NCBI GenBank assembly: GCA_031369785.1
Contig: JANMPI010000510.1
Span: forward strand, 1-47,042
Direction of reading: 5' to 3'
DNA: 47,042 nucleotides
From: Acidobacteriota bacterium
GTDB taxonomy: Bacteria; Acidobacteriota; Vicinamibacteria; Fen-336
A program made the translations under genes and the position numbers. The notes under the pieces were generated by a model. The model had not been told where the DNA came from, did no database searches, and saw only the letters and a program-made list of their open reading frames with translations. Of the stretch, positions 2,151-35,008 are shown one piece after another. Numbering within the stretch: the first letter of the stretch is position 1; each line of letters starts with the position of its first letter.

Positions 2151-2187
2151 CCGCGGTTCCGGGCCCTGTGCTACGGTTTCGCGTCGC

Positions 2188-3982: not shown

Positions 3983-4001
3983 GGGCGGCCGGCGCGGCCG
4001 C

Positions 4002-7396: not shown

Positions 7397-7425
7397 ATCA
7401 CCTCGAGTTCTACCGCGGCCGCAAG

Positions 7426-9491: not shown

Positions 9492-9496
9492 GCCTC

Positions 9497-15177: not shown

Positions 15178-17117
15178 AAGCGCTGGTGCTGTGGGGCGAT
15201 GGCGGCGTCGAGTCCGCGCGGGCGCGGCACGACGATGGCGCCCTCCTTCTTCTCTGGGACGGCGAGCGCTCGGCGGCTCTCGATGCGGCGGGCGTCCCGT
15301 ATCGATCCGCGGCGAGCCTCACCGCCGGCGCGCAGGACGCCATCGACGAAGCCGCGATGGCCTGGACGAAGGAGTGGGGACGCCGCGCGCTGCTCGACGG
15401 CAAGAGCTTCCGCGCGCTGTTCGCGTGGAAGGGCGTCTCGCTCTGGTGGTTCGCCGAGCTCTATCTCCATCACTCCACCGACGCCCCGCGGCACGTCCGC
15501 GTCATCGAGTCCGTGCACCGCATCCTCGACGCCGAGACACCGGACGAAGTGGAGACGGTCGGCCTCTCCCCGGAGGACACGCTGCTCGTCGAGCGAACCT
15601 GCACCGCCCGCGGCGTCCTCTTCCAGGGCCCGCGGCGCCTCACCGGATCTCCCGCCGGGCGCAAGGTCGCGAGCGTCGTGCGGCGCAGCCGGTGGAACGC
15701 GGCCAAGGCGCTGCTGACCGCGGCCAAGGCCCGCCTCGCCGGCCCTCCGCAAGCACCGCCGGAGAGCGCGCAACCGACCGTCCTCTTCCTGTCCCACGCC
15801 GCCTTCTGGCGCGCGCGCGATGAAGAACGGGAGGAGTACGAGCACTACTTCGACCGCGTGATCCCCGCCGCCGCCGAGCAGGGCTTGCGGGCGTTCGTGG
15901 TCGCGGTGGGCCCGCGGTCGGCCTTCCGCCGGCGCGGCCGGCGCGAGCAGGTGGCGGAGTGGCTGCGCCTGTCCTCGAGCGACGAGCCGTACGTCCACGT
16001 CAACCGCTACAGCGACGCCCGCGTCCATCGCGAGGTGCGCCGCGCGACGACGATGATCCACGACGGCTGGCAGCGCCTGCGGCGGTCGCCGGCCCTCGTC
16101 GAGGCCTTCTCCCATCGCGGCGTCGCCTTCGCCGATCTCGCGGAGGCCGATCTCGCGTCGACCATGCTTTTGCAGCTGCCGTGGGCGGTGCGCTGCTACG
16201 AGGAGATGGCGGCGGTGCTCCTGTCGGTGCGGCCGGCGGTCGTCTGCCTGTACGCGGAGTCGAGCGGATGGGGGCGGGCGGCGGTCGCGGCCTGCCGCGC
16301 CGCCGGCGTGCCGACGGTCGCCATCCAGCACGGGATCGTCTACCCGAAGTACTACTCGCACCGGCACGCGCCGGACGAAGGTGACACGCCGGTGCCCGAC
16401 GCGACCGCGCTTTTCGGCGCCTCCGCGCGGCGGCTGCTCGTCCACCTCGGCCACCCGCGGCCGGAGTCGCTCGTCCTCACCGGCAGCCCGCGCTTCGACG
16501 AGCTCCTCGAGCGTGCGCGGTCCGGCGACCGCGACGCGCTCCGCCGATCGATGGGCGCCGCGGAAGGGCAACCGCTGGTCGCGGTGGCGAGCCGCTTCCG
16601 GGCCATCCGCGACACCCATTCCGCCATCGGCACCGCGTTCCCGTCCCTGGTCGCCGCGATCCGCGCCCTCGGCGTGCGCGCGGTGGTGAAGCCGCATCCC
16701 GCGGAGTCCCACGGCGAGTACCTGGCCGCCATCGGCCTTTCCGATCCCGCGATCGCGGTGCTGTCGCCGTCCGCCGATCTCCTCGACCTGCTGATCGCGG
16801 CCGACGCGCTCGTAACCGTGGAATCGCTCTCCGCGGTGGAGGCCCTCGTCGTCGGCCGCCCGGTGGTGATCCTCAACATGCCCACGCACCTGGGCGCGCT
16901 GGTGGACGCCGGGGTGGCGTTGGGCGTCGACGCCGGGGCCGATCCCACGGACGTCCTTCGCCGCGCGCTCCTCGACCCCGAGACGCGCAACGCGCTGCAG
17001 CACGCGCGCACCCTGTACCTCGACGAGCTGGCGCTGGGCGTCGACGGGCTTGCCACCCGGCGCATCGTCGACCTGCTGCGCCAGACCGCATCCGCGTCGT
17101 TTCCGGCCATTTCGTAG
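15174..17117 (+). CDS. Unassigned 647-aa protein, C-terminal half GT-B-like (TagF/KpsS-like KPHP motif); candidate glycan/nonulosonate transferase
   Basis: The TTG at 15174 overlaps the upstream TGA (TTGA). The region has coding-type third-position bias. Motifs: VPTVAIQHGIVYP, LTGSPRFDEL, VVKPHPAES, ADALVTVESLSAVEALVVGRPVV. The function is inferred only from context, directly upstream of the NeuB genes. Confidence 0.45.
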   Translation: MKALVLWGDGGVESARARHDDGALLLLWDGERSAALDAAGVPYRSAASLTAGAQDAIDEAAMAWTKEWGRRALLDGKSFRALFAWKGVSLWWFAELYLHHSTDAPRHVRVIESVHRILDAETPDEVETVGLSPEDTLLVERTCTARGVLFQGPRRLTGSPAGRKVASVVRRSRWNAAKALLTAAKARLAGPPQAPPESAQPTVLFLSHAAFWRARDEEREEYEHYFDRVIPAAAEQGLRAFVVAVGPRSAFRRRGRREQVAEWLRLSSSDEPYVHVNRYSDARVHREVRRATTMIHDGWQRLRRSPALVEAFSHRGVAFADLAEADLASTMLLQLPWAVRCYEEMAAVLLSVRPAVVCLYAESSGWGRAAVAACRAAGVPTVAIQHGIVYPKYYSHRHAPDEGDTPVPDATALFGASARRLLVHLGHPRPESLVLTGSPRFDELLERARSGDRDALRRSMGAAEGQPLVAVASRFRAIRDTHSAIGTAFPSLVAAIRALGVRAVVKPHPAESHGEYLAAIGLSDPAIAVLSPSADLLDLLIAADALVTVESLSAVEALVVGRPVVILNMPTHLGALVDAGVALGVDAGADPTDVLRRALLDPETRNALQHARTLYLDELALGVDGLATRRIVDLLRQTASASFPAIS

Positions 17118-17137
17118 GGGCGTGGTAGGTTTACCCC

Positions 17138-18169
17138 GTGCGACCGACGACGTTCACGCTCGGAACCCGGCAGGTCGGCGAGGGACAGCCGTGCTTCGTC
17201 CTGGCCGAGGTCGCGTCCGCCCACGGCGGGTCCGCGGACGTGGCCCTCCGGATGCTGGAGTCGGCGTTCAAGATGGGCGCCGACGGCATCAAGTTCCAGC
17301 TCTTTCGCGCCGACCTCCTGGTGGTCGCGCGGCACCCCGGGCGCAAGGACTTCGACCAGATCGAGCTCGGAGCGAAGGACTGGCAGAGGGTCTTGCGCGC
17401 GGCCAAGGCGTCCGGGCTGACCGTGCTCGCTGAGGCCTTCGATCCGCCCTCCCTCCGCCTCGCGGAAGAGGAAGGCGTCGACGGCTACAAGATCCACTCC
17501 ACGGACATGGAGAACCCGGAGTTCATCAAGGCGGTAGGGACCGTGCGGCGGCCCGTCTTCTTCGCCACCGGCGGCGTTCCCGAAGACGCGGTGCGCGAGG
17601 CCCTCGACCTCGTGGGCAACGCGCCGGTCGGACTGCTGCACGGGTTCCAGACCTTCCCCACTCCGATCGAGGAGATCCGGTTCCGCGAGCTCTCGGCCTG
17701 GAAGGAGCGCTACCGCGTGCCGGTCGGGTTCCTCGATCACACCGACGGCGGAAGTGCCTTCGCGCTGGCCGCTCCCGCCCTCGCCGTGGGCTACGGCGCG
17801 GACCTCGTCGAGAAGCACTTCACGCTCGACCGCAGCGAGAAGGGGTTCGACTACCAGTCGTCGCTCAACCCCGAGGACTTCTACCGCATGGTCGAGCTGC
17901 TGCGCCAGGCCGAGCGCGCGGCGGGGGACGGGCCGGCGGCGGAGAGCGAGGGCGCGAAGCGGTACCACCGCGTGATGGCGCGGTCGATCGTGGCCGGCAA
18001 GCTGATCCCGCGCGGCGAGGTGCTGACCCTCGAGATGCTGGCCTTCAAGCGCACCGACATCCGCTTCGATCCGGGCTTTCCGCCGCGAAATGCGGACCGC
18101 GTCATCGGCCGCCGCGCCGCCCGCCCCATCCAGGCCGACGAGACGATCCGCGAGGACATGCTCCAGTGA
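17138..18169 (+). CDS. NeuB/SpsE-family nonulosonic (sialic-acid-like) acid synthase paralog 1, with C-terminal SAF domain
   Basis: PCFVLAEVASAHGGS..A..M...A...GADGIKFQLF, GYKIHSTDM and VGFLDHTDGGS (metal His context). The C-terminal SAF-like segment is RSIVAGKLIPRGEVLTLEML. GTG start at 17138. Confidence 0.8.
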   Translation: MRPTTFTLGTRQVGEGQPCFVLAEVASAHGGSADVALRMLESAFKMGADGIKFQLFRADLLVVARHPGRKDFDQIELGAKDWQRVLRAAKASGLTVLAEAFDPPSLRLAEEEGVDGYKIHSTDMENPEFIKAVGTVRRPVFFATGGVPEDAVREALDLVGNAPVGLLHGFQTFPTPIEEIRFRELSAWKERYRVPVGFLDHTDGGSAFALAAPALAVGYGADLVEKHFTLDRSEKGFDYQSSLNPEDFYRMVELLRQAERAAGDGPAAESEGAKRYHRVMARSIVAGKLIPRGEVLTLEMLAFKRTDIRFDPGFPPRNADRVIGRRAARPIQADETIREDMLQ

Positions 18170-18948
18170 CCGAGGCGGTGTGGATCGTGGTCTCCGCGCG
18201 GATGGCGTCGTCCCGGTCGCCGGGCAAGGCCATGGCCGACCTCGCCGGGCGCCCGCTGCTCGAGGTGCTGCTTTCGAGGATGAAAACCGCGCGCGGCGTG
18301 GCCGGCGTCGCGCTCGCCACCTCGCAGCGCGACGAGAACCACCCCCTGGCCAAGGTCGCGGGGCGGCTGGGCGTTCCCGTCTTCCGCGGGGACGAGAACG
18401 ACGTCCTCCGCCGGCATCTCGATTGCGCGCGCTGGCTGGGCGCGGATCACGTCGTCCGCGTCACCGGCGACAACCCGCTCACCGACGTGGAAACCGCGGA
18501 ATCCCTGGTGGCTCTCCATCTCGCCGAGGATGCCGACTACACGTACGTGCCCGGGGACGCGCTGCTCATGGGGATCCTGTCCGAGGTGATCGCCACCGAT
18601 GCGCTGGCGCGGGCGTGGGAGCGCGGCGAGGAGCGGCATCGCTCCGAGCTCATGACGCTCTACATCAAGGAGAACCCGGGCGAATTCCGCATCGCGCTGG
18701 GGACGCTGGCCAGGGACCTCTATCGTCCGGAGTACCGGTTGACGGTGGACGAGCCCGAGGACGTGGCCCTCATGCAGGCGCTCTTCGCGCGCCTTGCCCG
18801 GCCCCCGCACGTGGTGACGACGCGGGAGACGATCGCGCTCCTGGACGCCGACCCGTCGCTCGGCGCCATCAACGCCGCCGCCCGCCACAAGGCCGGCAAC
18901 CTCCATTCCGTCGCCCTCGACGCGGGCATCGCCGGCGCGCGCCGATGA
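18166..18948 (+). CDS. SpsF-like cytidylyltransferase-family protein (acylneuraminate cytidylyltransferase superfamily)
   Basis: VWIVVSARMASSRSPGKAMADLAGRPLL matches the SpsF-type N-terminus (QARmgStRLPGK). VVRVTGDNPL is also present. GTGA overlap upstream and ATGA overlap downstream. Confidence 0.75.
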   Translation: MTEAVWIVVSARMASSRSPGKAMADLAGRPLLEVLLSRMKTARGVAGVALATSQRDENHPLAKVAGRLGVPVFRGDENDVLRRHLDCARWLGADHVVRVTGDNPLTDVETAESLVALHLAEDADYTYVPGDALLMGILSEVIATDALARAWERGEERHRSELMTLYIKENPGEFRIALGTLARDLYRPEYRLTVDEPEDVALMQALFARLARPPHVVTTRETIALLDADPSLGAINAAARHKAGNLHSVALDAGIAGARR

Positions 18949-19997
18949 AGTCGACTTTCGAGATAGCGGGCCGCAAGGTCGGCATCGGCCAGCCCTGCTA
19001 CGTGATCGCGGAGGCGGGGGTCAACCACAACTGCGACGTGCAGCTCGGCTACAAGCTGATCGAGACCGCGGCCGCGTCGGACGCCGACGCGATCAAGTTC
19101 CAGAGCTACACCGCGGGCAAGATCTCGACCCGCGTGGCGCCCCGGTACTGGGTGGAGCCGAAGGACCCGAACGGCACGCAGTGGGACACCTTCGACAAGC
19201 TCGACAAGCTGTCCGACCGCGACTTCAAGTCGCTGCTCGGCCAGGCCCGGCACGTCGGGATCACCGCCTTCTCGACACCGTTCGACGACGACGCGGTGGA
19301 CTTCCTGGCCACCCTCGACGTGCCGGCGTTCAAGATCGCGTCCGCCGACCTCACCTGCCACGGGCTCATCGCCCGCGCGGCGCGCCTCGGCAAGCCGATG
19401 ATCCTGTCCACGGGAACGTCGTCGCTGTCGGAGGTCGAGGAGGCGCTCGACGTCTGCCGGCGCGAAGGGAACGAGCAGGTCGCGATCCTCCACTGCACGC
19501 TCAAGTACCCGTGCCCGCCGGAGGCCATCAACCTCCGGATGATGGAGCACCTGATGCGCGCCTTCCCCGAGGTCCCGGTCGGCCTCTCCGATCACTCGCT
19601 CGGGATCAGCGTGCCGCAGGCGGCGGTGGCGCTCGGCGCGTGCGTCGTCGAGAAGCACTACACGGTGGACAAGACCCTCCCGGGGTCGCCCGATCATCAT
19701 CTTTCCGTCGACCCGCCGGAGATGAAGGCAATGGTGTCCGGCATCCGCACGGTGGAGAAGGCGCTGGGCAAGGCGCAAAAGGCGCTGGAGCCCATGGAGC
19801 GCGACGCGTATCTCTTCGCGCGACGCAGCGTCACGTCCGCGGTGGCGATCGCGAAGGGCACCGCGATCACCGCCGCGATGCTCACCTACAAGCGGCCGGG
19901 CACCGGCATCAACGCCAAGCTGCTCGACGTCGTGGTCGGCCGCGTGGCGCGGGTGGACATCCCCGCTGACACCACCATGACCTGGGAAATGCTTTAG
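18945..19997 (+). CDS. NeuB-family nonulosonic acid synthase paralog 2 (NeuB/PseI/LegI-like), canonical motifs
   Basis: PCYVIAEAGVNHNCDVQLGYKLIETAA.SDADAIKFQSY, FKIASADLT, PMILSTGTSSLSEVEEA, VGLSDHSLG and a C-terminal SAF domain. The ATG at 18945 lies within listed ORF 18090-19997. Confidence 0.9.
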   Translation: MKSTFEIAGRKVGIGQPCYVIAEAGVNHNCDVQLGYKLIETAAASDADAIKFQSYTAGKISTRVAPRYWVEPKDPNGTQWDTFDKLDKLSDRDFKSLLGQARHVGITAFSTPFDDDAVDFLATLDVPAFKIASADLTCHGLIARAARLGKPMILSTGTSSLSEVEEALDVCRREGNEQVAILHCTLKYPCPPEAINLRMMEHLMRAFPEVPVGLSDHSLGISVPQAAVALGACVVEKHYTVDKTLPGSPDHHLSVDPPEMKAMVSGIRTVEKALGKAQKALEPMERDAYLFARRSVTSAVAIAKGTAITAAMLTYKRPGTGINAKLLDVVVGRVARVDIPADTTMTWEML

Positions 19998-20078
19998 CCA
20001 CAGCCGGCGCGCCCAGTCGAAGACTCACTGCGGCGGAGCGCGAGGGGCCTGGGGGGTGCCGGCGCGGCATCCGCCCAG

Positions 20079-20924
20079 CTAGTTGACGCTGGCCTTCCGG
20101 TTCAGGCTGAACCTCAGGGTGTCCGCGGCGGCGCGCAAGAGGCCGGCGACGTTCGCCCGCGGGTCGTGCGCGCGCCACACGTCCGGGATGGGGCCGCTGT
20201 TGGCGCGCACCACGTCGGCAAGCGCCGCCACTTCTCCGACGGCGGCCACGGTGGCTCCAGCCTGGTAGGTCGTCCGGGCATGGCTGAGCCGTGCCTGGAG
20301 GTCGGCGAGCGCCGGGCCTGGGATGGAGGGCGCGTGGGTGTCGAGAAGAGACTGGGCGGCATCGAACTTCGCGGAAATGACGGTATCGATGGGCCGTCGG
20401 TCGACCACGATCACGAACTCCGAGAAGCCGCCGCCCGTCCCGCCCGCGCGATAGCTCCCGATCCCCTCGTTGCGCATGATGTCGCGGAAGGGGCCGCCTC
20501 CCGATGCCGAATGGAGGGCCAGCGGAATGTTGGGCACGAGGTTCAGGTTGTGGGTGTGCAAGGAGACCGCGACCGTGCCCGCGAAGGAAAGTGCGCTCGA
20601 CGGCGAGGGCTCGATGCGGATCACCACGGGGAAAGCCGCCGGCGGCGCGATCAGCCCTCCGCCTCCGAGCCGGGACAGTAGAGTGCCGTCTAGGGGATTG
20701 ACCAGGCTGGCTGACACCTCGAGCGCGGCCGGGTTCAGCCCCACCACCTGCTCGAAGGTGATCGACAGCTCGGCCCCCACGCCTCCGGGGAGCTGGATCA
20801 CCCCGGTCGCCTCGCTCCCGGATACGGTGAGGGGAATACTGGCCTGGGCGAACACACCCGGCGCGGAGCCGAGCAGACAAGCGACGATCGCGAGGCGCTG
20901 AAAACTGGTCACTTTCGTGAACAA
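20079..20924 (-). CDS. Secreted hypothetical protein (signal peptide, no recognised domain)
   Basis: 281 aa. The N-terminus MFTKVTSFQRLAIVACLLGSAPGVFAQA has an AQA|S SPase-I-like site. It also contains an IVAC lipobox-like string. Codon bias is good. The start is TTG at 20924, without a clear SD. Confidence 0.6.
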   Translation of the reverse strand: MFTKVTSFQRLAIVACLLGSAPGVFAQASIPLTVSGSEATGVIQLPGGVGAELSITFEQVVGLNPAALEVSASLVNPLDGTLLSRLGGGGLIAPPAAFPVVIRIEPSPSSALSFAGTVAVSLHTHNLNLVPNIPLALHSASGGGPFRDIMRNEGIGSYRAGGTGGGFSEFVIVVDRRPIDTVISAKFDAAQSLLDTHAPSIPGPALADLQARLSHARTTYQAGATVAAVGEVAALADVVRANSGPIPDVWRAHDPRANVAGLLRAAADTLRFSLNRKASVN

Positions 20925-20991
20925 GAATTAACGCAGCGGCGACCCCTCGTCAAGCCCATTTGCGCGAAGAAGCAAAAATGAGGCCTTCACC

Positions 20992-21639
20992 TCAGGCGAG
21001 GAGCAAGCCTCGACGGGCCGCGAAGCGGATCAGCTCCGCCGTGCTATGGACGCCAAGCCTCGCCATCAGGTGCGTCCGGTGGTTGTCTACCGTCTTGGGG
21101 CTGATGAAAAGGATGCGCGCGACCTCCGCGTTGGTCCGCCCTTCGATCAGCAGCTGGAAGACCTCGCGCTCCCGTGCCGTCAGCCGCTCATAGGGGTCTT
21201 CCGCGGCGGCGCTTCCCTGCTCGTAGCCGGCAGCCAGGGCCTTGGCCGCCTGGGGCCCGAAGTATCCCTGCCCCGCGCTCACCGCGCGGATGGCGGCCAC
21301 CAGCTCCCCGGCGGCGCTGTCCTTGACCACGTATCCCGAAGCGCCGGCGCGCACGCTGCGGAGGACGTACTCCTCGTCGTCGTGCATGGTGAGGACCAGG
21401 ATGCGGGTGCGGGGCAGCGCCTTGTGGATGCGGCGAGCGGCCTCGAGGCCGCCGAGGCGCGGCATGCTGAGGTCGAGCACCGCCACGTCGGGCCGGGACT
21501 CGAGTGCCTTCTCGACCGCCTCGTGGCCGTCGGCAGCCTCCCCCACTACCTCAAATTCCGCGTGGCTGCGGAGAATACTGATGAGGCCCTGACGGATCAT
21601 GGTGTGATCGTCGGCCACGAGGATCCGGGTCCGCGCCAC
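20992..21639 (-). CDS. NarL/FixJ-family response regulator (REC + LuxR-type HTH)
   Basis: RILVADDH, DVAVLDLSMP (phospho-acceptor Asp context) and TMHDDEEY. The C-terminal HTH reads LTAREREVFQLLIEGRTNAEVARILFISPKTVDNHRTHLMARLG. Confidence 0.92.
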   Translation of the reverse strand: MARTRILVADDHTMIRQGLISILRSHAEFEVVGEAADGHEAVEKALESRPDVAVLDLSMPRLGGLEAARRIHKALPRTRILVLTMHDDEEYVLRSVRAGASGYVVKDSAAGELVAAIRAVSAGQGYFGPQAAKALAAGYEQGSAAAEDPYERLTAREREVFQLLIEGRTNAEVARILFISPKTVDNHRTHLMARLGVHSTAELIRFAARRGLLLA

Positions 21640-21641
21640 GG

Positions 21642-22409
21642 TCAGCGACCGTCTTCCAGCGGCAGCTCCACCTCGACCAGGGTTCCGGCCCCCGGGGCCG
21701 TCCGCAGCTCGAACCGCCCGCCGAAGAGGTCCACGCGGTCGCGCATCCCGCGCAGCCCGCCTCCGTGCTGGTCCTCCCGGGCCGCGAGCGCCGGCCCGGG
21801 GTCGAATCCCCGCCCCTGGTCCCGGACGCTCAGGAAAAGCCGGTCCCGCTCCCGGCGCACGCGGACCTCCGCCGACGCGGCGGCGGCGTGCTTGGCGGCA
21901 TTGGTGAGCGCCTCCTGGACTAGGCGGTAGACGATGGTCTCCAGGTCGGGCCCGACGCGCTCCTCCATGCCCTCGATGGAGAGCTGGACGCCCAGACCCG
22001 TTCCTTCCTGGAGCGTCCGCGCCAGCCAGCGCAGGGTCGGCACCAGGCCAAGCTCGTCGAGCATCTGCGGGCGCAGGAGGCGGGAGAGCTGGCGGACGTC
22101 CTGCAGGGAGCGGTCCGCGATCTGCGTAAGCTCGGCCAGACGGGCTCGCAGCACCCCGTGGTCCGTCGCCGATCGCTCCAGGATCTCGAGCTGCATCTTG
22201 AGCGCAGTCAGGGACTGGCCCACGCCGTCGTGCAGCTCACGGGAGATTCGCCCCCGCTCCACTTCCTGGATCCGCAGGATGCCGCGCGCGATGAGGCGGA
22301 AGCGCTTCTCGCCCTGAGTCAGGCGGTCGAGCAGCCGGGCGTTCTCGGCGGTGATGCGGGCCACATCGCGGGCAAAAGCCTGCTGGCCATCCACCGTCTC
22401 GTCGCTCAC
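21642..22409 (-). CDS. Soluble HisKA_3-type sensor histidine kinase without a recognisable input domain
   Basis: H-box RISRELHDGVGQSLTALKMQLE, N-box EALTNAAKHA, G1 DQGRGFD and G2 GGLRGMRDRV..GG. There is no TM segment. The GTG at 22409 overlaps the TGA of the upstream kinase gene (GTGA). The ATG at 22448 listed in the track would give a 43-nt overlap. Confidence 0.88.
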   Translation of the reverse strand: MSDETVDGQQAFARDVARITAENARLLDRLTQGEKRFRLIARGILRIQEVERGRISRELHDGVGQSLTALKMQLEILERSATDHGVLRARLAELTQIADRSLQDVRQLSRLLRPQMLDELGLVPTLRWLARTLQEGTGLGVQLSIEGMEERVGPDLETIVYRLVQEALTNAAKHAAAASAEVRVRRERDRLFLSVRDQGRGFDPGPALAAREDQHGGGLRGMRDRVDLFGGRFELRTAPGAGTLVEVELPLEDGR

Positions 22410-25400
22410 GGGCGGGCCGTGGTGCGCGCCGCTGATTCCCGCACCCACGGGATGGCGTCGAAGGAGGCGCGGACGTCCGTGGCCATGCCTTCGCGCAACC
22501 GTGCGATCCCGCGCGCCGTCTCCTCGTACTCCCGCGCCGCGGCGGAGGCATCCCCTCTTTTTGCGAGGACCACGCCCAGGAGGGCGTGGAGCCGGGAGAG
22601 TCCCGCCTCAAAACCGTGCCGGCTCGCGGCGGTGAGGGCACGGCGGGCCATCTCTTCGGCCTCGACGAGATGGCCGCGCGCGAGCTGGGCGCGGGTCATC
22701 GCTTCCGCGGCGCGGATACGCAGCATGACGTCTCCCAGTGCGTCGGCCTCCCGCTGCAGGGGACGCAATTGCAAGGTGGCCGCCGCCGCATCGCCGACCG
22801 CGACGAGAACGGCCGCCTGCGCGATGCGGGCACGGAGATACGCGGCCCGGCTGTTGCTCCCACGCGCCTGCTCGACCGCGCGCGCGAGGGCGCGCCGGGC
22901 ATCATCCCCCGCCCCCTGCCGAGCGTGCCATTCGCCGAGGACGACATGGTAATCGGCGGACTGCTCGCGATTGCCGGTCTCGCGCACCCAGGCCTCGGCG
23001 CGGGTGAGCCCCGCCCGTGCCTCGTCCAGCCGCCCGAGCTCCAGCAGCGCGGCCGACTGCTTGATGGTGAATTCGGCCAGCCCCCGCTTGTCTCCCAGGC
23101 CCTCGAGCACGGCGAGGGCCTCGCCGAAGGAGGCGAGCGCCGCCCCGTACCGCCCTTCATATTGCTGAAGCAGCCCCATGTTTCCCAGGGAGACAGCGGT
23201 CGCGTTCTTGTAGTCGATCTCGCGGCTGTCTTCCAGGGCTTTCGCAAAGGCCTTCAGCGCCTCGCCCCAGCGCCCCTGCACAATGTGGAGGAATCCCAGG
23301 TTCTGCGTAGACAGGACGATCCCGGCCTTCTCCCCGAGCTTCCGCCGGAGGTCGAGAGATTGCTTCCAATACACGAAGGCGTTGTCGTACTCGCCCTCCA
23401 CGAAGAATATGTAGCCGACGTTGTCGTAGCTCTGCGCCATCTGGCGCTCGTCTCCCATGTTGCGCCGGACCTTGAGCGCGTCCTGGTACGCCTTCAGCGC
23501 CTGCCCGAACTCGCCCCGGTTCTCGTGCACGAGGCCGAAGTCGTTCAGGACATCGGCGAGCCCGGCCCGGTCGCCGATTTTTTCCGCGATGCGGCGCGCC
23601 TCCTTCAGGTCAGGCTCCGCGGCGGCGAGGTTGCCCATCGAAATGTGCATCCGCGCCCGGTTCTTGAGGCTGGTCGCCACCCCGCGCTCGTCCCCGAGGC
23701 GCTGGCGGATGGCCGCGGCGGCGGAGTACTTCTCGATCGCCTGCGGGTAGTCCCCCAGTTGGTGGTACGCCACGCCCATCGCGTTCAGCACCTCGGCCTG
23801 CCCCTGCTCGTTGTGGAGCTGGCCGTGCAGGGCCAGCGCCCTCACGAGATGATCCTTCACCGCACGGCCGGCGTTTCCCATGAGGATGGTGTTCTTCCCC
23901 AGCAGGAACCACACGCGGGGGTCGCTGCGGTCGAGCTGCGACGCTTTTTCAAGGGTTGCCACGGCCCGGGCCACGTCGCCCTGACTCGCCTGCGCCGAAG
24001 CGAGATCGAGCAGCGCCTCGAGGTCGTTGGGGAAGCGGCGGGCCAGCTCGACGTAGCTCTTCTCCGCTTCCGCGGGCTCGCCGCGGAGGAGGGCCACGCG
24101 TGCCCGGATGCGATATCCAAGGCGTGCTTCGCTCGCTCCGGCGGCCCGGGCGGCGCGCTCCGCGACGGCAAGGGCCTTTTCTTCGTAGCCCAGGTTCTGG
24201 TAGGTCTCGGCCAGGCGCTCCAGGGCCACGGCGAATTCCGGGTCGGCGGCGACCGCCTTCTCCAGGGCAGGAGCGGCCGACACGTATTCCCCCCGGGCCA
24301 GGAGATCGCGGCCCTCCTGGTAGGCCCGGGCCGCGGCCAGCGAGGTCGTCTCCGGGAGCGCGGCCGCCGCCCGCGCCGCCTGCTCCGCGCCGAGATCGCG
24401 CCGCAGCCGATCGCCCAGGGCGTCCACCATGCGAAAGAGACCGTCATCCCCGGTGGACTCGTCGCCGAAATGACGCGTCTCCATCACCCCCGAGGGACTC
24501 ACCGCGACCAGCCGCAGGTCAATCCGCACGGTGGAGCCCGCCTTGCGCACGCTGCCGGCCACCAGGCGGTCGACCTCAAGCGTCTCCGCCAGTTGCCGCA
24601 GGGCGCGCTCGTCCTGCGTCCGGCCCAGCTTCAGATCACGCAGCGAATGGAAGACCCGCTGCGCGTCGAGCACACGAAGGGCGGGGCTCTCCGAGAGACC
24701 GGCAGCCAGCATCTCGGGGATGCCGGTCCCGGCCCAGTCGAGGTCGGGGTCCGCGGTCTCGACGTTCAGGGGGAGGACGGCAACCGAGTGCAGGGCCGCC
24801 ACCGGGGGCGCGGACGGCGACGGCAATCCGCCGGGCGGCGCAGGGCCCCGATTCCGCTGCGCGCCCCAGATTCCGGCCGCGGCGAGCACTGCGACGCACG
24901 CGGCCAGCCAGTACTGACGGCGGATCGCCGGCGTCCGCACGGCCCGCCGATCGAGGTCCGCGACCAGGTCGCGCGCGGACTGGTAACGACGGGAAGGGCT
25001 CCGTTCCAGGCACCGCGCAATCGCGGCGCGCACGTAGGCGGGGACCGCGATTCCCGTCTCGCGGATGTCGCGGGCGCGTCCGCCGATGCGCTGGGCGAGG
25101 ATCTCGGCCTGGGACTCGCCGGGAAAGGGCAGTTGCCCGGTGAGGATCTCGTAGAAAAGGATGCCGAGGGCGTAGACGTCGCTGCGGCCGTCGATCGCCT
25201 CCCCCGCCACCTGCTCCGGCGAGAGGTAATCGGGCGTTCCCACCACGGCCCCGGTGCGGGTGAGCCCCTCGCGGCCGAGGGAGCGGGCGACGCCGAAGTC
25301 CGTGACATAGGCGGTGTCATCCGCCTCGACCAGGACATTGGCGGGCTTGAGGTCGCGATGGACGACCCCGGCGTCGTGCGCCTGCTGCAGGGCTTCCGCG

Positions 25401-25810
25401 ACTTGGCGGACGATCCGTTCCGCGCGCGCAACGGGCAAGGAGCCCTCCGCGCGCAGGACCTCGAGCAACGAGCGCCCCTCCACGTAACGCATGGTCAGGA
25501 AGCGCAGGCCCTGGTCCTCGCCGATGTCGTGGATGCGCACGACGTTGCGATGCGTGACCTGCCGCGCCAGCACCAGCTCGCGCCGGAAACGCGCGATCCA
25601 GTCGGGATCGGCGCCCAGGTCCGGCCGCAGGACCTTGAGCGCGACATCCTCGTCCAGCTCGAGGTCGCGGGCCTTGTAGACGACACCCATGCCCCCGATG
25701 CCCGCGGTCGCGATCACACGGTAGCGGCCGGCGACGACGGCCCCGGGGGCCAGCTGGCGCGCCATGTCCACGCTGGTGTCGGTGTCCTTCAAGGGCGGGC
25801 GGGCGCCCAC
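22406..25810 (-). CDS. Hanks-type Ser/Thr protein kinase with one TM helix and a very long extracytoplasmic TPR region
   Basis: GIGGMGVVYKA, VALKV, HRDLKPANVL, DFGVAR and GTPDYLSPE. The TM helix is YWLAACVAVLAAAGIWGA at about residues 300-317. It is followed by a VAVLPLNVETADPDLDWAGTGIPEML-type module and about 700 aa of TPR-like repeats. The start is GTG 25810 or ATG 25765. Confidence 0.9.
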   Translation of the reverse strand: MGARPPLKDTDTSVDMARQLAPGAVVAGRYRVIATAGIGGMGVVYKARDLELDEDVALKVLRPDLGADPDWIARFRRELVLARQVTHRNVVRIHDIGEDQGLRFLTMRYVEGRSLLEVLRAEGSLPVARAERIVRQVAEALQQAHDAGVVHRDLKPANVLVEADDTAYVTDFGVARSLGREGLTRTGAVVGTPDYLSPEQVAGEAIDGRSDVYALGILFYEILTGQLPFPGESQAEILAQRIGGRARDIRETGIAVPAYVRAAIARCLERSPSRRYQSARDLVADLDRRAVRTPAIRRQYWLAACVAVLAAAGIWGAQRNRGPAPPGGLPSPSAPPVAALHSVAVLPLNVETADPDLDWAGTGIPEMLAAGLSESPALRVLDAQRVFHSLRDLKLGRTQDERALRQLAETLEVDRLVAGSVRKAGSTVRIDLRLVAVSPSGVMETRHFGDESTGDDGLFRMVDALGDRLRRDLGAEQAARAAAALPETTSLAAARAYQEGRDLLARGEYVSAAPALEKAVAADPEFAVALERLAETYQNLGYEEKALAVAERAARAAGASEARLGYRIRARVALLRGEPAEAEKSYVELARRFPNDLEALLDLASAQASQGDVARAVATLEKASQLDRSDPRVWFLLGKNTILMGNAGRAVKDHLVRALALHGQLHNEQGQAEVLNAMGVAYHQLGDYPQAIEKYSAAAAIRQRLGDERGVATSLKNRARMHISMGNLAAAEPDLKEARRIAEKIGDRAGLADVLNDFGLVHENRGEFGQALKAYQDALKVRRNMGDERQMAQSYDNVGYIFFVEGEYDNAFVYWKQSLDLRRKLGEKAGIVLSTQNLGFLHIVQGRWGEALKAFAKALEDSREIDYKNATAVSLGNMGLLQQYEGRYGAALASFGEALAVLEGLGDKRGLAEFTIKQSAALLELGRLDEARAGLTRAEAWVRETGNREQSADYHVVLGEWHARQGAGDDARRALARAVEQARGSNSRAAYLRARIAQAAVLVAVGDAAAATLQLRPLQREADALGDVMLRIRAAEAMTRAQLARGHLVEAEEMARRALTAASRHGFEAGLSRLHALLGVVLAKRGDASAAAREYEETARGIARLREGMATDVRASFDAIPWVRESAARTTARP

Positions 25811-25815
25811 GCGCG

Positions 25816-26766
25816 TCAGAGCGCCGGCGGATCGAGGGCGAGGCGCGGCGGGGAGGGCTCGTGCGCGCGGAGCGCGAGCGATCCGATGCGCTGCTGCAAC
25901 TCCTCGACCGAAGCGCTGGTGCGGGACGGGCGCGCCTGGAGCTCGGCGATCCGCCGCTCCAGCTGCAGGCCGCCAATGACCAGCGCCGTGTGCTCGGCGA
26001 GGGCTTCCAGGATCTCCAGGTCCAGGTCCGTGAAGCCGCCGCCGGCCGTGGTGCTGTCCACGTAGAGGATGCCGAGCAGGCGGTCGTCCTGGAGCAATGG
26101 CACGCAGGCCAGGACCCCCAGGCGCATCTCCACCACGCTCGCCCGCGCGCCCAGCAGCGGATGGCGCTGGGCATCGGAGACGACGACGCTGGCATGGGTC
26201 TCCACCGCGTGCCGCAGGGCCCCGACGCTGCCCGTGAACCCGTCGTCCCGCACCTGGCCGGGAGCGAACCCGGCCGCGACCTCCGCGTGCAGCCGCCCGT
26301 CGGCGCCCGCGATCAGGACGAACCCCCGCTCGGCGCCCGTGGCCCCGAGGGCGGATTCCAGGAGCCGCAGCAGCAAGTCGAAGGTGTCCAGATCGGCGTT
26401 CAACCTGCGCTTGAGCTCGATGCTGGTGTGGAGCCGCGCGAGGCGCTGTCCCGAAAGGGCGCGCGCCTCATCCTCCGTGATGCGGTCGAAGCGGCCGAGG
26501 AGGCCGCCAAAGCTCAACCACTCTCCGCCCTCCAGGCGTCGGCCGGAGACGGCCATCCCGTTCACGGAGGAGCCGTTCTTGCTGCCGGCGTCTTCGAGAG
26601 TCCACCCGTCGCTCCAGACCAGCCGCGCGTGCTGTTTCGACACCCGGCCATCCTCGATCACCAGCCCGCATTCGGGATCGCGCCCGATGGTCAGGCTTTC
26701 TCCGTCACCGATCACGATGAACCTGGCCGGCCGGTGCGGGGGATGAAGTGTCAGCTTGGCGGGCAT
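25816..26766 (-). CDS. FHA domain - GAF domain protein
   Basis: The ATG at 26766 (MPAKLTLHPP) is the chosen start. FHA motif: LTIGRDPECGLVIEDGRVSKQHARLVWSDGWTLEDAGSKNGSSVNG. GAF-like motif: GAERGFVLIAGADGRLH...LGILYVDS. The upstream 26767-26901 part of the listed ORF looks non-coding. Confidence 0.85.
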   Translation of the reverse strand: MPAKLTLHPPHRPARFIVIGDGESLTIGRDPECGLVIEDGRVSKQHARLVWSDGWTLEDAGSKNGSSVNGMAVSGRRLEGGEWLSFGGLLGRFDRITEDEARALSGQRLARLHTSIELKRRLNADLDTFDLLLRLLESALGATGAERGFVLIAGADGRLHAEVAAGFAPGQVRDDGFTGSVGALRHAVETHASVVVSDAQRHPLLGARASVVEMRLGVLACVPLLQDDRLLGILYVDSTTAGGGFTDLDLEILEALAEHTALVIGGLQLERRIAELQARPSRTSASVEELQQRIGSLALRAHEPSPPRLALDPPAL

Positions 26767-26774
26767 CGGCGTGG

Positions 26775-26799
26775 CCCTTCCACGCGTTCTCGGGAAGGG
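26775..26799 (-). promoter_or_regulatory. 7-bp stem hairpin whose 3' arm contains the SD-like GGAAGGG of the FHA-GAF gene
   Basis: The minus strand reads CCCTTCC-cgagaacgcgt-GGAAGGG-ccacgccg-ATG. The arms are perfectly complementary. The purine-rich arm lies 8 nt upstream of the ATG at 26766. Confidence 0.35.
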
Positions 26800-26875
26800 A
26801 AGCGGTCCCGGGAGTTCAGCGTATGAAGGATCTTCGCCCCTGCCCCCGGGGGAGTCAAGACAGCCCCAAAAGGAG

Positions 26876-26908
26876 CGCTCGCGTGGACCCGGAAGGCCCA
26901 CGCGAGCG
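26876..26908 (-). terminator. Intrinsic-terminator-like hairpin downstream of metalloprotease 1
   Basis: Perfect 11-bp inverted repeat CGCTCGCGTGG / CCACGCGAGCG with an 11-nt loop. It lies 27 nt after the TAG at 26938-26936. On the minus strand it is followed by CTCCTTTTGGGG (a T4 tract). Confidence 0.6.
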
Positions 26909-26935
26909 GGGTACGACCCGGGCGACGGTGCGACG

Positions 26936-29900
26936 CTACTGGTTCAGCACCGTGCGCGCGATGCTGATCTCGATGGAGAACGCTCCGGGGACGTTCAGCA
27001 CCTGCACCCGGTAGACGCCCGGAGCCGACACCGGCTTGTCCAGGCCGGAGACGGTGAGGCCCGGGATCAACGCTTCACCGGTGGCGATCAGGTTGCCCGC
27101 GGGGTCGAGGAGCCGCACCGTCAGCGGCACAGCACTTCCGGTCACGACCACGGAGACGTCCCGGTCGAGCGAGCCTACGTTGACCGTCCGCTCGACGACC
27201 GGCCCCTCGCTCGACGAAGCCGTGCTCGTGGTGGTGACCGACCCGGATTCCGCGGCGGCGGGATTGGGCCCGCTCCCCGCGCACCCGAAGGCGAAGCCGT
27301 CCACGGTCACCACGCCCGTCCGGTGAACGAGCTTGAACTCGTGCGCGGCCAGGGTGAGGCCGGAGTAGGTGAGGCGGTGCCCGAAGGTCGGCGATCCGCT
27401 GCCGCTGGCATAGGACACCGTGCCCCGGAGGATGCCGTCGATGAAGACGTCCGCCGTCCCCGCCGCGGGCGTGATCACGAAGAAGTAGGTGATCGACGTG
27501 GCATTGAAGACGACGCGCGCGGTGGGGGTGCCGGACCCGTTGTTTGTCCCCGTGCGCTCCTGATAGCGGCCGTTGGAGGCGCGCACGTCCGTCTTCCGAT
27601 GCCAGCCGTTCTTGTACTCGACCGCGCGGTCGCCTTCGTCGATGGAGACGCAGTTCTCGTTGACCGTCACCGTGACGTTGGCGGGGTCGGTGCCGCCCCG
27701 CCCGTCGGAGTTCGTGTACGTGAACGTGTCGGCGCCGATGAAGTTCGCGTCCGGGGTGTAGGTGACGGTGCTGCCGTTGGTCGTGGCGGTTCCGTTGGGC
27801 GGATCGCCGACCGCGGTGACGGTCAGGGGGTCGCCGTCGGGGTCGCTGTCGTTCCCGAGCACGTTCACCGTGACCGGGGTGTTCACGATGGTGGTGGCGG
27901 TGTCGTCCACCGCGTCGGGGGCGGCGTTGCAGATGTCGGACTGCTGGTCGGGGCCCTGGAGCAGGACGTTGGTGAGCCGGACCTGGTCGAACTGCAGTCC
28001 TTCGAGGGACTGCAGGGCATCCGAGCCGTAGGCCACCTCGATCTGCACGGGCTGGCCGGCGTAGCCCGCGGCTCCCAGGGCGGTCGCGCTCCAGGTGCTC
28101 TCCGCCCACGGATTGGCCGGCTGGGTTGCGGAAGTCGCCCACCCGGGGCCGTTGTTGCAGCCGGTGTAGGAGTTGGCCGCGTTGTAGAGCCGCCCGCCGC
28201 TCGGGTTGACGATCGTCGTCTGCCCCTGCGCGTTGACGATCCCCACGTTGCCGCGGTCGTAGAACGGCGTCGCGGGCGTCTCGGGCTCGGTGGCGAACTG
28301 GTTGTAGAGCGACAGGGTCGAGCTCGCGGTGAGCCGCACCTTCGGCGATCGCGCGCGGTCGCAGGCGTTGTCCGCCCCGGAGGACGACTTCAGGTAGAAG
28401 GCGCTGCCGTCTGCTCCCGGCGGCGGGAGGTTGGTGCGGTCGAAGGTCCCCGAGAACGTCGTCCAGCCCTGAGCTCCGCTCTCGAAGTCGAAAATCGCGT
28501 TCCCGAGCACGAGGTCGGTCTCGGTATCGCGCACGGTGAGGATTCCCGTGGCCATGACGGGGCCGCCGGGGCTGTCGGCCTCCACCGCGACGTTGAAGGT
28601 CAAGGTGGACTGGGAAGCCAGGCCTCCCGCGCGGAAGCGGAAGGTCGCGGGCCCCGTCGAGTTGGCGCCTCCGCATCCGGCGCCCAGCGACCCCACGACG
28701 ATGGGCAGGGTGGTGAGGATCGACGTCTGCCCGCTGGACGGCTGGATCGCCGTGACGCGCACGTTGGTCAGGTTCATGCCGCCGGTGTTCACGACGTTGA
28801 AGGTCAGGCCCGCGATCTCGCAGTTGTCCACGAACGGATCGCCGTCGCCGGTCTCGATGACGGGACTCGCGCCTTTATCTTCGACCGCGACGCCGGGGCC
28901 GGTGAGGATGCCCGGCGCGAGCGGCGTGACCATGGCGCAGGCGCTCATGGGCCCGGCGCAGGATTCGGCGGGGACGCCCAGCGCGCCGCCCACGGCCACC
29001 ACGCTGTAGTAGTAGGTGAGCCCGTCGAGGAGGTCGCTCTGGGTGAAGGTGAAGCTGCCCGCGGCGGCCGGCACCTCGGCGACGCGGGTCTTGCCGAAGT
29101 CGCATCCGTGAACGCCGTCCGTCCGCAGCACCCAGTACTCGGCCGCGCCGGGAACGGCGGGCCAGGTGACGGTCGCGCTCTGCACGCCGGCGGTGGCCGT
29201 GACCGTGGGGGCGGTGATCGGGGCCGGAGTGGCCACGCAGCCCAGGTTCATCGGAAGCGGCGCGCCGCAGGCGATGCCGTGGCGGCTGAAGGCGTCGTGG
29301 ATGGCCACCATGTGCGGCGTGCCGTTGCCGATGGCGCCGTCGTCGTCGTCCGCAGCCAGGAAGTTCAGGTACCAGCTGTCCGCGTTGCACCCGCCGAGGG
29401 CGACGTCGCAGGTGTAGCCGAAGGTCACCCCGCCCGCGGCGCGGTAGAACAGCCGCGTGGTGAGGACCAGCGACGAATTGTCGTCCATGAAGCGGGGCAG
29501 GGCGTTCGTGCACCGGCCGCCGGCCACTGTCCCCGAGGCGTGGCTCTCCCACCGGCGCGTGTGACAGGGCAGGTCACGCTTGAGGAGGTCCCACACCGAC
29601 TCGCCGATGATCGTTCCCTCGCAGTGGGTCGAGCGGCCGCAGGGGCCGCCGCCCAGGGCGGGGGTGGGCGGATTGAGAACGGGGCAGCCGCCCGGGATGG
29701 TGGGGTTCTGCCCCAGCACCCAGGCGAGGTCGTGCGGCCGCTGCGACTGGCGCTTCTTCCAATCATCCTCGCGGACGCCGGTGCACTCCGTGCACGGGTC
29801 GCCGTTACCGCCGCAGGTGCCCGTGGTGTAGAAGCCCCGGCCGATGCACGAGGTGTTCAGCCGGAAGATGGCCGCCATGTCCGCGTACGCCTCGCCGGGG

Positions 29901-31426: not shown

Positions 31427-31491
31427 GCTCTCCTCGGTGGACGCTCGATGGCGTCGCAGACAGGTGTCTGTTTTGACGGCGCGATGCGCGG

Positions 31492-34878: not shown

Positions 34879-35008
34879 GCGGTGAGCCTCCATGACCGCA
34901 AGACTAGGCAACCGCACGCGCACCCGACAATGAGGGAACCGCCTCAGAAAAGGGTGAGAAGGCAACTCATTTTTCGGGCGTGGCCGGAGCCCGTGCTAAG
35001 TTCGCGCG

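Follow-up and report, generated by a model that had tools for sequence, protein, structure and literature searches.

By its sequence, par1 belongs to an old, widespread and multi-phylum branch of the NeuB family that is uncharacterised. We tentatively favour a reading, which we place a little short of evenly balanced, in which the operon containing par1 carries two synthase-activator modules for nonulosonic acids. These would be par1 with an SpsF-type cytidylyltransferase, and a second synthase, par2, with a PseF-PseG-like fusion protein; par1 would be active with a new function. Nonulosonic acids, a group that includes sialic, legionaminic and pseudaminic acid, are found on the surfaces and flagella of bacteria. 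The sugar made by a given genome is routinely predicted from its NeuB homologue. The operon is placed within a surface-glycan cluster of a Vicinamibacteria (Acidobacteriota) soil genome. The stretch of DNA analysed, 47,042 nucleotides in full, is referred to as the window.

Two NeuB homologues flank an SpsF-type cytidylyltransferase gene

Three overlapping genes occupy positions 17138-19997 on the plus strand. The first, par1 (17138..18169), has a GTG start and encodes a divergent NeuB-superfamily protein of 343 aa, with a TIM barrel and a SAF domain; it typifies what we call the par1-like subfamily. The second (18166..18948; 260 aa) encodes an SpsF-type (COG1861-like) cytidylyltransferase, which we pair with par1. 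The third, par2 (18945..19997; 350 aa), encodes a canonical, SpsE/LegI-like nonulosonate synthase with Pfam NeuB and SAF domains. The par1 and SpsF-type genes share a GTGA overlap (18166-18169), and the SpsF-type gene and par2 an ATGA overlap (18945-18948). An earlier note on this DNA had described two NeuB-family paralogs around an SpsF-like gene, with these positions and junctions, and our analysis agrees. The identical three ORFs were obtained when genes were called independently on a contig of 98% identity. Third-position GC is 0.92-0.95 over the three genes (0.93 for par1), which is a coding signature. A simple gene caller based on third-position GC was erratic in lower-GC relatives, and its calls were left out of our conclusions.

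The SpsF-type protein is a member of Pfam family CTP_transf_3 (PF02348; 82.6 bits against a gathering cutoff of 22.6). It has the N-terminal nucleotide-binding motif AR..S.R.PGK, seen as VVSARMASSRSPGKAM. Its best PDB match is 6OEW, a 'cytidylyltransferase' (73 bits), with KdsB enzymes next. The distance between par1 and the SpsF-type gene is below 100 nt in all 49 related loci. SpsF-type enzymes also adjoin canonical synthases where there is no par1-like gene (15 of 52 diverse loci). Hence, the SpsF-type enzyme could serve par2, and we count this against the two-module reading.

Catalytic residues and the PEP pocket of par1

The par1 and par2 proteins are 30% identical. Pfam matches to NeuB (PF03102) and SAF (PF08666) exceed the gathering cutoffs in both, at 151.7 and 46.6 bits for par1, with the SAF domain at aa 282-342, and 275.6 and 39.5 bits for par2. 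Neither protein reaches the NCBIfam equivalog cutoffs for NeuB_NnaB (TIGR03569; 205 bits for par1 and 347 for par2, cutoff 399.65) or PseI (TIGR03586; 166 and 285 bits, cutoff 340.25).

Residue roles were drawn from PMC8208679, PMC6795526 and PMC7371886; unless stated otherwise, positions follow NmNeuB numbering. Catalytic roles are described for E25, E134 and E234, and metal binding for His215 and His236 (PMC8208679). Both par1 and par2 have H215, H236, E25 and E234; position 134 is D in both, as in structure 6NCS. In its own numbering, par1 retains E24, H29, K52, Q54, K118, D123, H201, E225, H227, D238 and R305. It is altered at A28, E99, H120, A143, G169, Q171, F173 and L199, corresponding to N29A, T110E, 131H, S154A, C182G, N184Q, Y186F and S213L. 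Residues 110, 129, 131, 132, 182 and 184 surround PEP (PMC7371886), and four of these six positions differ systematically in the par1-like branch. We scored both paralogs for a canonical PEP pocket (T/S110, small 131, S132, S154, C182, S213). par2 has T, A, S, S, C and S, and all of its mapped active-site residues are canonical except N184L. In par1, these positions carry E, H, S, A, G and L, and the pocket is not canonical. Because par1 retains metal and catalytic residues, and is changed at positions surrounding PEP, we read it, tentatively, as an active enzyme with a new function.

The earlier note had placed the main deviation in the N-terminal motif. The canonical form, VIAEAGVNHNCD, is indeed present in par2, and par1 does have LAEVASAHGGS (aa 22-32), together with KFQ (aa 52-54), the DHT context (GFLDHT, aa 197-202) and the SAF domain; EKH is at aa 225-227. 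Within G.NHN, only the change of N29 to A is a real departure. The motif itself is variable, reading AELSANHAGS in PseI and EIGINHEGS in N. meningitidis NeuB; like par1, C. jejuni PseI departs at the Gly of AE.G, having Ser in its place. Loss of G.NHN was thus ruled out as the key deviation. As a difference it is the least diagnostic; changes of a systematic kind lie around the PEP site.

The AF2 model of par1 (pLDDT 96.3) has TM scores of 0.85 to CjPseI (8H2C) and 0.83 to NmNeuB (1XUU). In a fold search with this model, DAHPS and KDO8PS rank right after the NeuB-family structures. The par1-like proteins match DAHP synthase models weakly (22-53 bits) and par2 does not. We considered the proposal that par1 cannot use PEP, from the loss of T110, S154 and S213, and dropped it; K53 and K129 are retained, and DAHP synthases, which par1 weakly resembles, are PEP users. 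Hence, an enzyme with an acidic residue on strand 4 may still use PEP, as the KDO8PS and DAHPS motifs presumably allow.

The placement of these differences bears on a serious rival that was absent from the options in the earlier note. Here, there is a single nonulosonate pathway and par1 is an accessory non-synthase enzyme or partner on the NeuB scaffold. We consider this a real possibility. The systematic differences sit around PEP, and not at the metal or sugar-C1 site, as would suit an enzyme with a retained metal-bound open-chain aldose site and a PEP pocket refilled with acid/base residues (E99 and H120 of par1). Such an enzyme could epimerise or isomerise free hexose ahead of par2, for example at C2, offsetting a non-epimerising PseG-type hydrolase. 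Alternatively, it could pass its product to the SpsF-type cytidylyltransferase. Conversely, K53 and K129, which pair with the PEP carboxylate in NeuB, are retained throughout the SpsF-linked clade, and both the weak DAHP synthase matches and the ranking of DAHPS and KDO8PS in the fold search argue against an accessory role. We also know of no epimerase activity of this kind on the NeuB fold.

An insertion separates par2 from a PseF-PseG-like fusion gene

A further plus-strand gene, cyt567 (35009..36712), encodes a two-domain fusion, in which aa 8-220 form a PseF-like cytidylyltransferase and aa 225-481 a PseG-like nucleotide-sugar hydrolase. We take it to be the partner of par2. The N-terminal part also matches Pfam CTP_transf_3. 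NCBIfam scores are below the equivalog cutoffs for both PseG (TIGR03590; 129 bits against 153.55) and PseF (TIGR03584; 110 against 205.7), though the sequence homology of both domains to these families is clear. The arrangement is presumably that of H. pylori HP0326. Since all equivalog scores at the locus fall below their cutoffs, we leave the stereochemistry of its product (Leg, Pse or other) unassigned.

The earlier note had counted two synthases and two activating enzymes, and two NeuB-family synthase homologues and two cytidylyltransferases are what we find. It was also right that a PseF-like cytidylyltransferase domain starts at 35009. It had placed this gene elsewhere in the window, and that part does not stand. 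Because cyt567 lies directly 3' of par2 both in relatives and in a strain with 98% identity, we conclude that it has been displaced by an insertion. The contig from that strain is 98.2% identical over window positions 13814-19991 and then resumes at 35031. The two genes, par2 and cyt567, are neighbours in 23 of 30 related loci. The strain-specific insertion (about 19992..35030, some 15 kb) splits the operon between the two genes, and its own genes are all on the minus strand. They encode a DUF6689 protein, a LuxR-type response regulator, a histidine kinase, a Ser/Thr kinase with TPR repeats, an FHA-GAF protein and two giant Big_9/cadherin-like paralogs. The insertion flanks were searched for direct and inverted repeats and for tRNA genes, and none were found.

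Other genes of the operon are conserved around this core. Upstream, up728 (15186..17117, plus strand; GTG start, 643 aa by the independent gene call) encodes a candidate nonulosonate transferase with a TagB/GT-B-like C-terminal domain. Its Pfam match to Glyphos_transf (22.6 bits) is barely over the cutoff, and NCBIfam matches to 'surface carbohydrate biosynthesis protein' (43 bits) and 'BFO_1060 family glycosyltransferase' (36 bits) are below theirs. Relatives of BFO_1060 are Tannerella transferases for Pse/Leg derivatives (PMC5420450). In 29 of 39 loci, up728 is directly upstream of par1. Downstream, 36709..37686 (plus strand) encodes an SDR-family 4,6-dehydratase or decarboxylase-like enzyme, with NCBIfam scores, all below cutoff, of 186 bits for LegB, 178 for UDP-4-keto-pentose/UDP-xylose synthase and 158 for ArnA. 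This gene follows cyt567 in relatives too. Next is a Wzx-type polysaccharide flippase (37683..39152, plus strand; Pfam Polysacc_synt and Polysacc_synt_3), which is also conserved downstream in relatives. The best explanation is an ancestral operon ordered up728, par1, SpsF, par2, PseF-PseG fusion, SDR and flippase. Further upstream, on the plus strand, family matches identify an NDP-sugar 4,6-dehydratase-like SDR (7333-8382) and a DegT/PseC/ArnB-like aminotransferase (8379-9491), which may supply an amino-deoxyhexose precursor. These two genes persist in relatives from which the synthase module has been lost and are therefore not specific to nonulosonate synthesis.

A model with two synthase-activator modules

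We suggest that the three overlapping genes are at the heart of a single ancestral operon, whose products would make and activate nonulosonic (sialic-acid-like) sugars. In one module, par2 would condense PEP with a free 2,4-diamino-2,4,6-trideoxyhexose-type sugar released by the PseG-like domain, and the PseF-like domain would then CMP-activate the product. In the other, par1 would catalyse a metal-dependent, aldol-type reaction and have a new function. Its product would be a keto-acid sugar unlike that of par2, the difference lying in the aldose accepted or in binding of the three-carbon donor. The SpsF-type enzyme would turn this product into its CMP form for transfer. Consistent with two modules, the window and its relatives have two cytidylyltransferases, which would be superfluous for the single pathway that an accessory par1 implies. 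Against them, we count the single PseG-like hydrolase present for two synthases.

The behaviour of the modules also bears on a heteromeric synthase, in which par1 would be a second subunit that regulates par2 or sets its specificity. The NeuB dimer is domain-swapped, with each active site completed by a SAF-domain arginine from the partner chain. Both par1 and par2 retain the SAF domain and R314, and they are within one translationally coupled operon. However, in two relatives (L026 and L037) the par1-SpsF and par2-cyt567 pairs lie 1.7-2.2 kb apart, each pair staying together. About a dozen Vicinamibacteria loci have no par2 within 6 kb downstream of par1-SpsF; this absence applies to the 6-kb neighbourhood only, as a pattern-based genome scan missed even the known par2 of L026 and L037. 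In addition, par1 has a full catalytic set of its own. A heteromer, one of three readings offered in the earlier note, thus seems improbable as a general arrangement. Of those three we still prefer the other two, a neofunctionalised paralog and two different sugars, and the earlier interpretation as a whole is partly supported.

The par1-like branch in other bacteria

The par1 signature is common to 116 of 134 representatives, the best full-length ones after clustering at 50% identity. Hence par1 is part of an ancient, widespread subfamily, and did not arise as a deviant copy of par2 at this locus. Among the 134 representatives, H215, H236 and D247 are retained in 133, and E25, E234 and R314 in 130. 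Every member of the SpsF-linked clade, at 46%-84% identity, has E25, H30, K53, Q55, K129, D134, H215, E234, H236, D247 and R314. The derived residues N29A, T110E/D, N184Q, Y186F and S213L are clade-wide in these SpsF-linked members. Canonical and par1-like groups separate in a neighbour-joining tree, with modest support (exact split in 17 of 50 bootstraps) that we count against the two-module reading. The tree used Kimura distances, saturation affected some of the bootstraps, and characterised C. jejuni LegI and NeuB1 were left out. Thus, par1 and par2 neither share a clade nor match in predicted substrate residues, an outcome that would have spoken against the earlier note; they are apart in the tree and their PEP-pocket residues differ. 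We found no NCBIfam model specific to the par1-like branch, no literature report of a characterised member, and, among the papers searched, none joining Acidobacteria, nonulosonic acid and NeuB. The sources name par1-like members generically only.

An SpsF-like domain is fused C-terminally in 38 of the 116 par1-like representatives and in none of the 18 canonical ones. In one natural protein (P0126), a canonical synthase is joined to both a par1-like and an SpsF-like domain. This triple fusion is consistent with both a heteromer and an accessory par1; set against the heteromer, par1-like proteins are fused to SpsF-like domains 38 times and to a canonical synthase once among the fusions examined. 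A canonical synthase is also present in every gene neighbourhood examined, except relic loci without the module. In four of five fusion-bearing clusters (L072, L073, L075 and L076), the SpsF-like domain of the fusion is the sole cytidylyltransferase (CTP_transf_3). These four have a separate canonical NeuB and a PseG-like gene, and three (L072, L075 and L076) have a GNAT gene. With one cytidylyltransferase beside a separate canonical synthase, these clusters fit a single pathway with an accessory par1-like domain better than they fit two sugars.

Some par1 relatives lack E25, K53 and K129, and often H215 and H236, but still have dN/dS values of 0.09-0.31. As these residue-lost relatives remain under purifying selection, the par1 fold has some non-catalytic value; this favours an accessory par1 and counts against two active modules. 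Such losses could also suggest redundancy or decay, with par1 a duplicate that has no function of its own. Two relatives carry a stop or are split (L057 and L068), and long ORFs survive by chance at 70% GC. However, intact par1 pairs have dN/dS values of 0.07-0.24, indicating purifying selection. The invariance of the derived residues over 46-84% identity, the signature of a deep multi-phylum subfamily and the third-position GC of par1 likewise argue against decay. We already regard it as very improbable.

Comparison with known systems

The locus resembles the B. subtilis Leg pathway in having a SpsE-like par2 (best PDB match 1VLI, 211 bits), an SpsF-type middle gene and a PseG-like hydrolase akin to SpsG. 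In B. subtilis, Leg synthesis requires spsE and spsG, and Leg transfer to the spore surface requires spsF (PMC7439481). That system has one synthase and one cytidylyltransferase; conversely, the locus described here has par1, and a PseF-like domain fused to the PseG-like domain, in addition. No NeuC-type epimerase was seen among the genes annotated. With respect to the Campylobacter and Helicobacter Pse enzymes, C. jejuni PseI (8H2C) is the best PDB match of par1 by both sequence (122 bits) and fold, though par1 differs from PseI at N29, S110, A131, S154, C182, S184, Y186 and S213. Beside the operon, we identified no PseB-type (Polysacc_synt_2) dehydratase and no PseH.

NmNeuB (1XUU/1XUZ) shares with par1 the fold, the metal histidines, E25, E134 (as D), E234, K53, K129, Q55, D247 and R314. 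The two are only ~23% identical, and positions 110, 131, 182, 184 and 213, which surround PEP, are changed in par1. A precedent for several synthases and several CMP-nonulosonate synthetases in one cluster is Leptospira interrogans, where two of each were taken by the authors to indicate several nonulosonates (PMC3438082). Unlike par1, the Leptospira synthase seen in structure 6NCS retains the canonical PEP pocket, and the unusual Leptospira synthase has a C-terminal phosphatase-like domain that par1 does not have (PMC3438082). In a Vibrio Pse cluster without NeuA, an SpsF-like domain fused to an aldo-keto reductase is the proposed NeuA replacement (PMC7371886). The par1-like fusions similarly contain an SpsF-type half in a bifunctional protein, though the Vibrio partner is an aldo-keto reductase and not NeuB-like.

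Implications

The par1-like branch may contain no nonulosonate synthase, providing instead a new activity on the NeuB scaffold tied to SpsF-type cytidylyltransferases; we think this somewhat doubtful. Possible activities would be a metal-dependent aldose epimerase or isomerase, or condensation with a three-carbon donor that is not PEP. In that case, thousands of genes named 'N-acetylneuraminate synthase family protein' or 'legionaminate synthase', including those for 585-aa fusions, would be misnamed. There would also be an unrecognised step in the biosynthesis of bacterial sialic-acid-like sugars, and the same fold would additionally be retained as a non-catalytic pseudoenzyme in some Vicinamibacteria. 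The dead but selected relatives of par1 are a natural case of an enzyme becoming a pseudoenzyme. The par1-like reaction, once known, would define a new sugar, a new pathway step or the correction of a widespread annotation. It would also help to predict from genome sequences which surface glycans are made by Acidobacteriota, which are abundant in soil.

par1 and par2 flank an SpsF-like gene

The window has a GC content of 70–75% and is most closely related to metagenome-assembled genomes from the Acidobacteriota class Vicinamibacteria. An earlier note described two NeuB paralogues on either side of an SpsF-like cytidylyltransferase gene. This arrangement is real, and the motifs quoted in the note were all found in the sequences. 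The first paralogue, par1 (17138–18169, plus strand), encodes 343 aa and the second, par2 (18945–19997, plus strand), encodes 350 aa. Both products carry Pfam NeuB and SAF domains. The SpsF-like gene (18166–18948, plus strand) encodes 260 aa with a CTP_transf_3 domain. The junctions are GTGA and ATGA overlaps, and the coding signature is strong throughout (GC3 0.92–0.95). The same three ORFs were called independently on a contig with 98% identity.

We then compared both products with the NCBIfam equivalog models for NeuB (cutoff 399.65 bits) and PseI (cutoff 340.25 bits). The scores were 205 and 166 bits for par1, and 347 and 285 bits for par2. Since every score is below its cutoff, the stereochemistry of the product (Leg, Pse or other) is not assignable for either paralogue.

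par1 keeps the catalytic residues and has an altered PEP pocket

The paralogues are 30% identical. We placed both on the numbering of N. meningitidis NeuB (NmNeuB) using PDB sequences. At all of the catalytic, metal and substrate positions examined par2 is canonical; the sole exception is N184L. In par1, residues E25, H30, K53, Q55, F112, K129, S132, D134, H215, E234, H236, D247 and R314 are unchanged. The alterations are N29A, T110E, 131H, S154A, C182G, N184Q, Y186F, S213L and F288V. The NeuB active-site residues are listed in PMC6795526, and the catalytic roles of E25, E134, E234 and R314 are summarised in PMC8208679. Positions 110, 129, 131, 132, 182 and 184 surround PEP, and this part of the protein is conserved across the synthases of Neu, Leg and Pse (PMC7371886). 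Four of the six are altered in par1. Loss of T110, S154 and S213 suggests that par1 no longer uses PEP as the donor. Retention of K53 and K129, and a weak likeness of par1-like proteins to the PEP-using DAHP synthases, count against this, so that PEP may or may not be the donor.

The earlier note stressed the loss of an N-terminal 'G.NHN' motif in par1. This motif proved to be the weakest marker, because the characterised enzymes C. jejuni PseI (AELSANHAGS) and NmNeuB (EIGINHEGS) vary there too.

The top PDB sequence match for par1 is PseI 8H2C (122 bits) and that for par2 is B. subtilis SpsE 1VLI (211 bits). An AlphaFold2 model of par1 was very confident (pLDDT 96.3). It superposed on PseI and NeuB (TM 0.83–0.85) and then on DAHP and KDO8P synthases. 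Bacillus-type DAHP synthase models from NCBIfam gave weak matches (22–53 bits) to par1-like domains but not to par2. These matches fall at aa 77–145 of par1 and also in the homologous proteins P0137, P0126 and P0156.

par1 belongs to a large subfamily

Rather than being a local oddity, par1 has many relatives that form a subfamily with it. We searched 1.84 billion representatives exhaustively with HMMER and obtained 12,581 matches. We defined a par1-type signature as A27, A/S at position 29, D/E at 110, His at 131, 'HGFQxFPT' and a non-Ser residue at 213. Among the 134 best full-length matches, 116 carry this signature, 133 retain H215, H236 and D247, and 130 retain E25, E234 and R314. In a neighbour-joining tree, 117 par1-like sequences (par1 included) parted cleanly from 23 canonical sequences (NmNeuB, CjPseI, BsSpsE, 6NCS, par2 and 18 representatives), with modest bootstrap support (the exact split in 17 of 50 replicates). 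Given the weak DAHP synthase matches, the par1-like branch may lie closer than canonical NeuB to the DAHPS and KDO8PS families. We found no NCBIfam model dedicated to the branch. Its members are named in the sources only as 'N-acetylneuraminate synthase family protein' or, automatically, as 'legionaminate synthase'.

In 61 loci of Vicinamibacteria and Marinacidobacterales, the SpsF-linked orthologues of par1 show 46–84% identity. In every one the kept and derived residues are identical to those of par1, and dN/dS is 0.07–0.24. That par1 is simply a duplicate in decay is very improbable.

A conserved operon is interrupted by a 15 kb insertion

In relatives, the gene order is GT9, up728, par1, SpsF, par2, PseF-PseG fusion, SDR and flippase. 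Here up728, directly upstream of par1, is a candidate transferase; it has weak matches to the TagB-like family to which the Tannerella Pse/Leg transferases belong. The PseF-PseG fusion gene of the window, cyt567 (35009–36712), encodes a PseF-like domain (aa 8–220, 110 bits) and a PseG-like hydrolase domain (aa 225–481, 129 bits). Neither domain reaches its equivalog cutoff. The earlier note placed a second cytidylyltransferase at this position. The PseF-like domain is indeed present; it is fused to the PseG-like domain, and its gene adjoins par2 in relatives. Of 30 loci, 23 have the two genes less than 100 nt apart.

L078, a contig from a different sample, matches window positions 13814–19991 at 98.2% identity and resumes directly at 35031. 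In L078, par2 overlaps the PseF-PseG gene. Hence, the 15 kb block at ~19992–35030 is a strain-specific insertion into the operon, exactly between these two genes. All of the inserted genes are on the minus strand. They encode DUF6689, a two-component system (LuxR-type response regulator and histidine kinase), a 1134-aa Ser/Thr kinase with TPR repeats, an FHA-GAF protein and two giant Big_9/cadherin-like surface proteins. The genes for the latter are adjacent (26936–31495, 1519 aa; 31492–34965, 1157 aa) and are paralogues, sharing ~1.5 kb at 72–95% nucleotide identity. A search of the insertion for terminal or flanking repeats and tRNA genes found none. The PseF-PseG gene and the inserted cadherin-like gene are divergent, and only ~43 bp (34965–35009) lie between their start codons. 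Hence, the insertion may have taken the place of the native translational coupling between par2 and the PseF-PseG gene.

Two loci (L026 and L037) have split operons. In both, par1 remains with SpsF, and par2 with the PseF-PseG fusion, which defines two modules. We tentatively favour, at a little under even confidence, a single nonulosonate operon with two modules, each a synthase with its activator. In this scheme par1 would be an active, metal-dependent paralogue with a new function, and its product would be CMP-activated by the SpsF-type enzyme. The canonical module would be par2 with the PseF/PseG fusion, closest to the legionaminic acid route of the B. subtilis Sps type (PMC7439481). The interpretation in the earlier note, which ranged from two nonulosonic acids or a heteromeric synthase to a neofunctionalised paralogue, is partly supported. 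A heteromer of par1 and par2 is unlikely.

Glycan genes surround the operon

A cluster at 2053–12804 encodes three or four GT2 enzymes, a YfhO-like protein, a PMT_2-like large membrane glycosyltransferase-like protein (9512–12046) and an aminotransferase with PseC- and ArnB-like scores. An SDR (36709–37686) has scores resembling those of LegB, UXS and ArnA. Relatives without the synthase module retain most of the genes just named, a hint that a separate, Ara4N-like pathway for a lipid-linked amino sugar shares the locus. Further downstream are glycan modification genes: a GNAT acetyltransferase (42904–43953), a polysaccharide-deacetylase-like gene (43950–44909), a GT4 (ORF 44648–46015) and a SAM methyltransferase (ORF 45184–46851), the last two with unrefined starts. 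The GNAT could supply the N-acetyltransferase that the nonulosonate pathway otherwise lacks.

par1-like proteins are tied to SpsF-type cytidylyltransferases

In all 49 of 49 loci, par1 and the SpsF-like gene are less than 100 nt apart; their median overlap is 7 nt. In 38 of 116 par1-like representatives the two form a single chain of ~585 aa, with the SpsF-like domain C-terminal; none of 18 canonical representatives has such a fusion. Natural fusion proteins include P0137 (L072, 10001–11755). P0126 (L075, 2696–5587; 963 aa) joins canonical synthase (NeuB), par1-like and SpsF-like domains. P0156 (L073, 10001–12700; 899 aa) has an N-terminal AP_endonuc_2-like domain before the par1-like and SpsF-like domains. 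Among 52 diverse loci, 15 have an SpsF-type gene beside a canonical synthase but no par1-like gene, the same pairing as B. subtilis SpsE-SpsF.

All five of the fusion-bearing clusters that we examined contain a canonical NeuB, separate or fused, and most contain a PseG-like gene and a GNAT. GATase/HisF-like and NAD-synthase-like amidotransferases are encoded near the fusion genes, which suggests acetamidino-modified nonulosonates. The fused SpsF-like domain is the sole visible cytidylyltransferase in four of the five clusters. Clusters with only one such enzyme favour the main rival to our two-module reading, as does the altered PEP pocket. Here, there would be a single pathway, with par1 an accessory, non-synthase enzyme or partner. 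We consider this possible but doubtful.

Relic par1 homologues are under selection

SpsF is absent from about a dozen Vicinamibacteria loci. Most of these also lack par2, the PseF-PseG fusion, up728, GT4 and GT9; the exceptions are L042, which retains an up728-like stretch, and L032, which retains GT4 and GT9. Relic par1 homologues are found in L019, L032, L042, L043, L046–L050, L052 and L064, near position 6001 in most. The par1-like ORF usually sits between a GT2 gene and a downstream SDR; in L019 and L032 it adjoins a par2-like fragment and a SOD gene. E25, K53 and K129 are missing from these ORFs, as in many cases are H215 and H236. Two further copies (L057 and L068) are broken. The intact relics have dN/dS of 0.09–0.31, similar to active-looking copies, and look like pseudoenzymes retained for a non-catalytic role. 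They too favour a single pathway. Pseudoenzymes under selection caution against taking catalysis as the only value of par1. As an operon, the locus is conserved in Vicinamibacteria; its interest lies in the uncharacterised, widespread branch of the NeuB family that includes par1.
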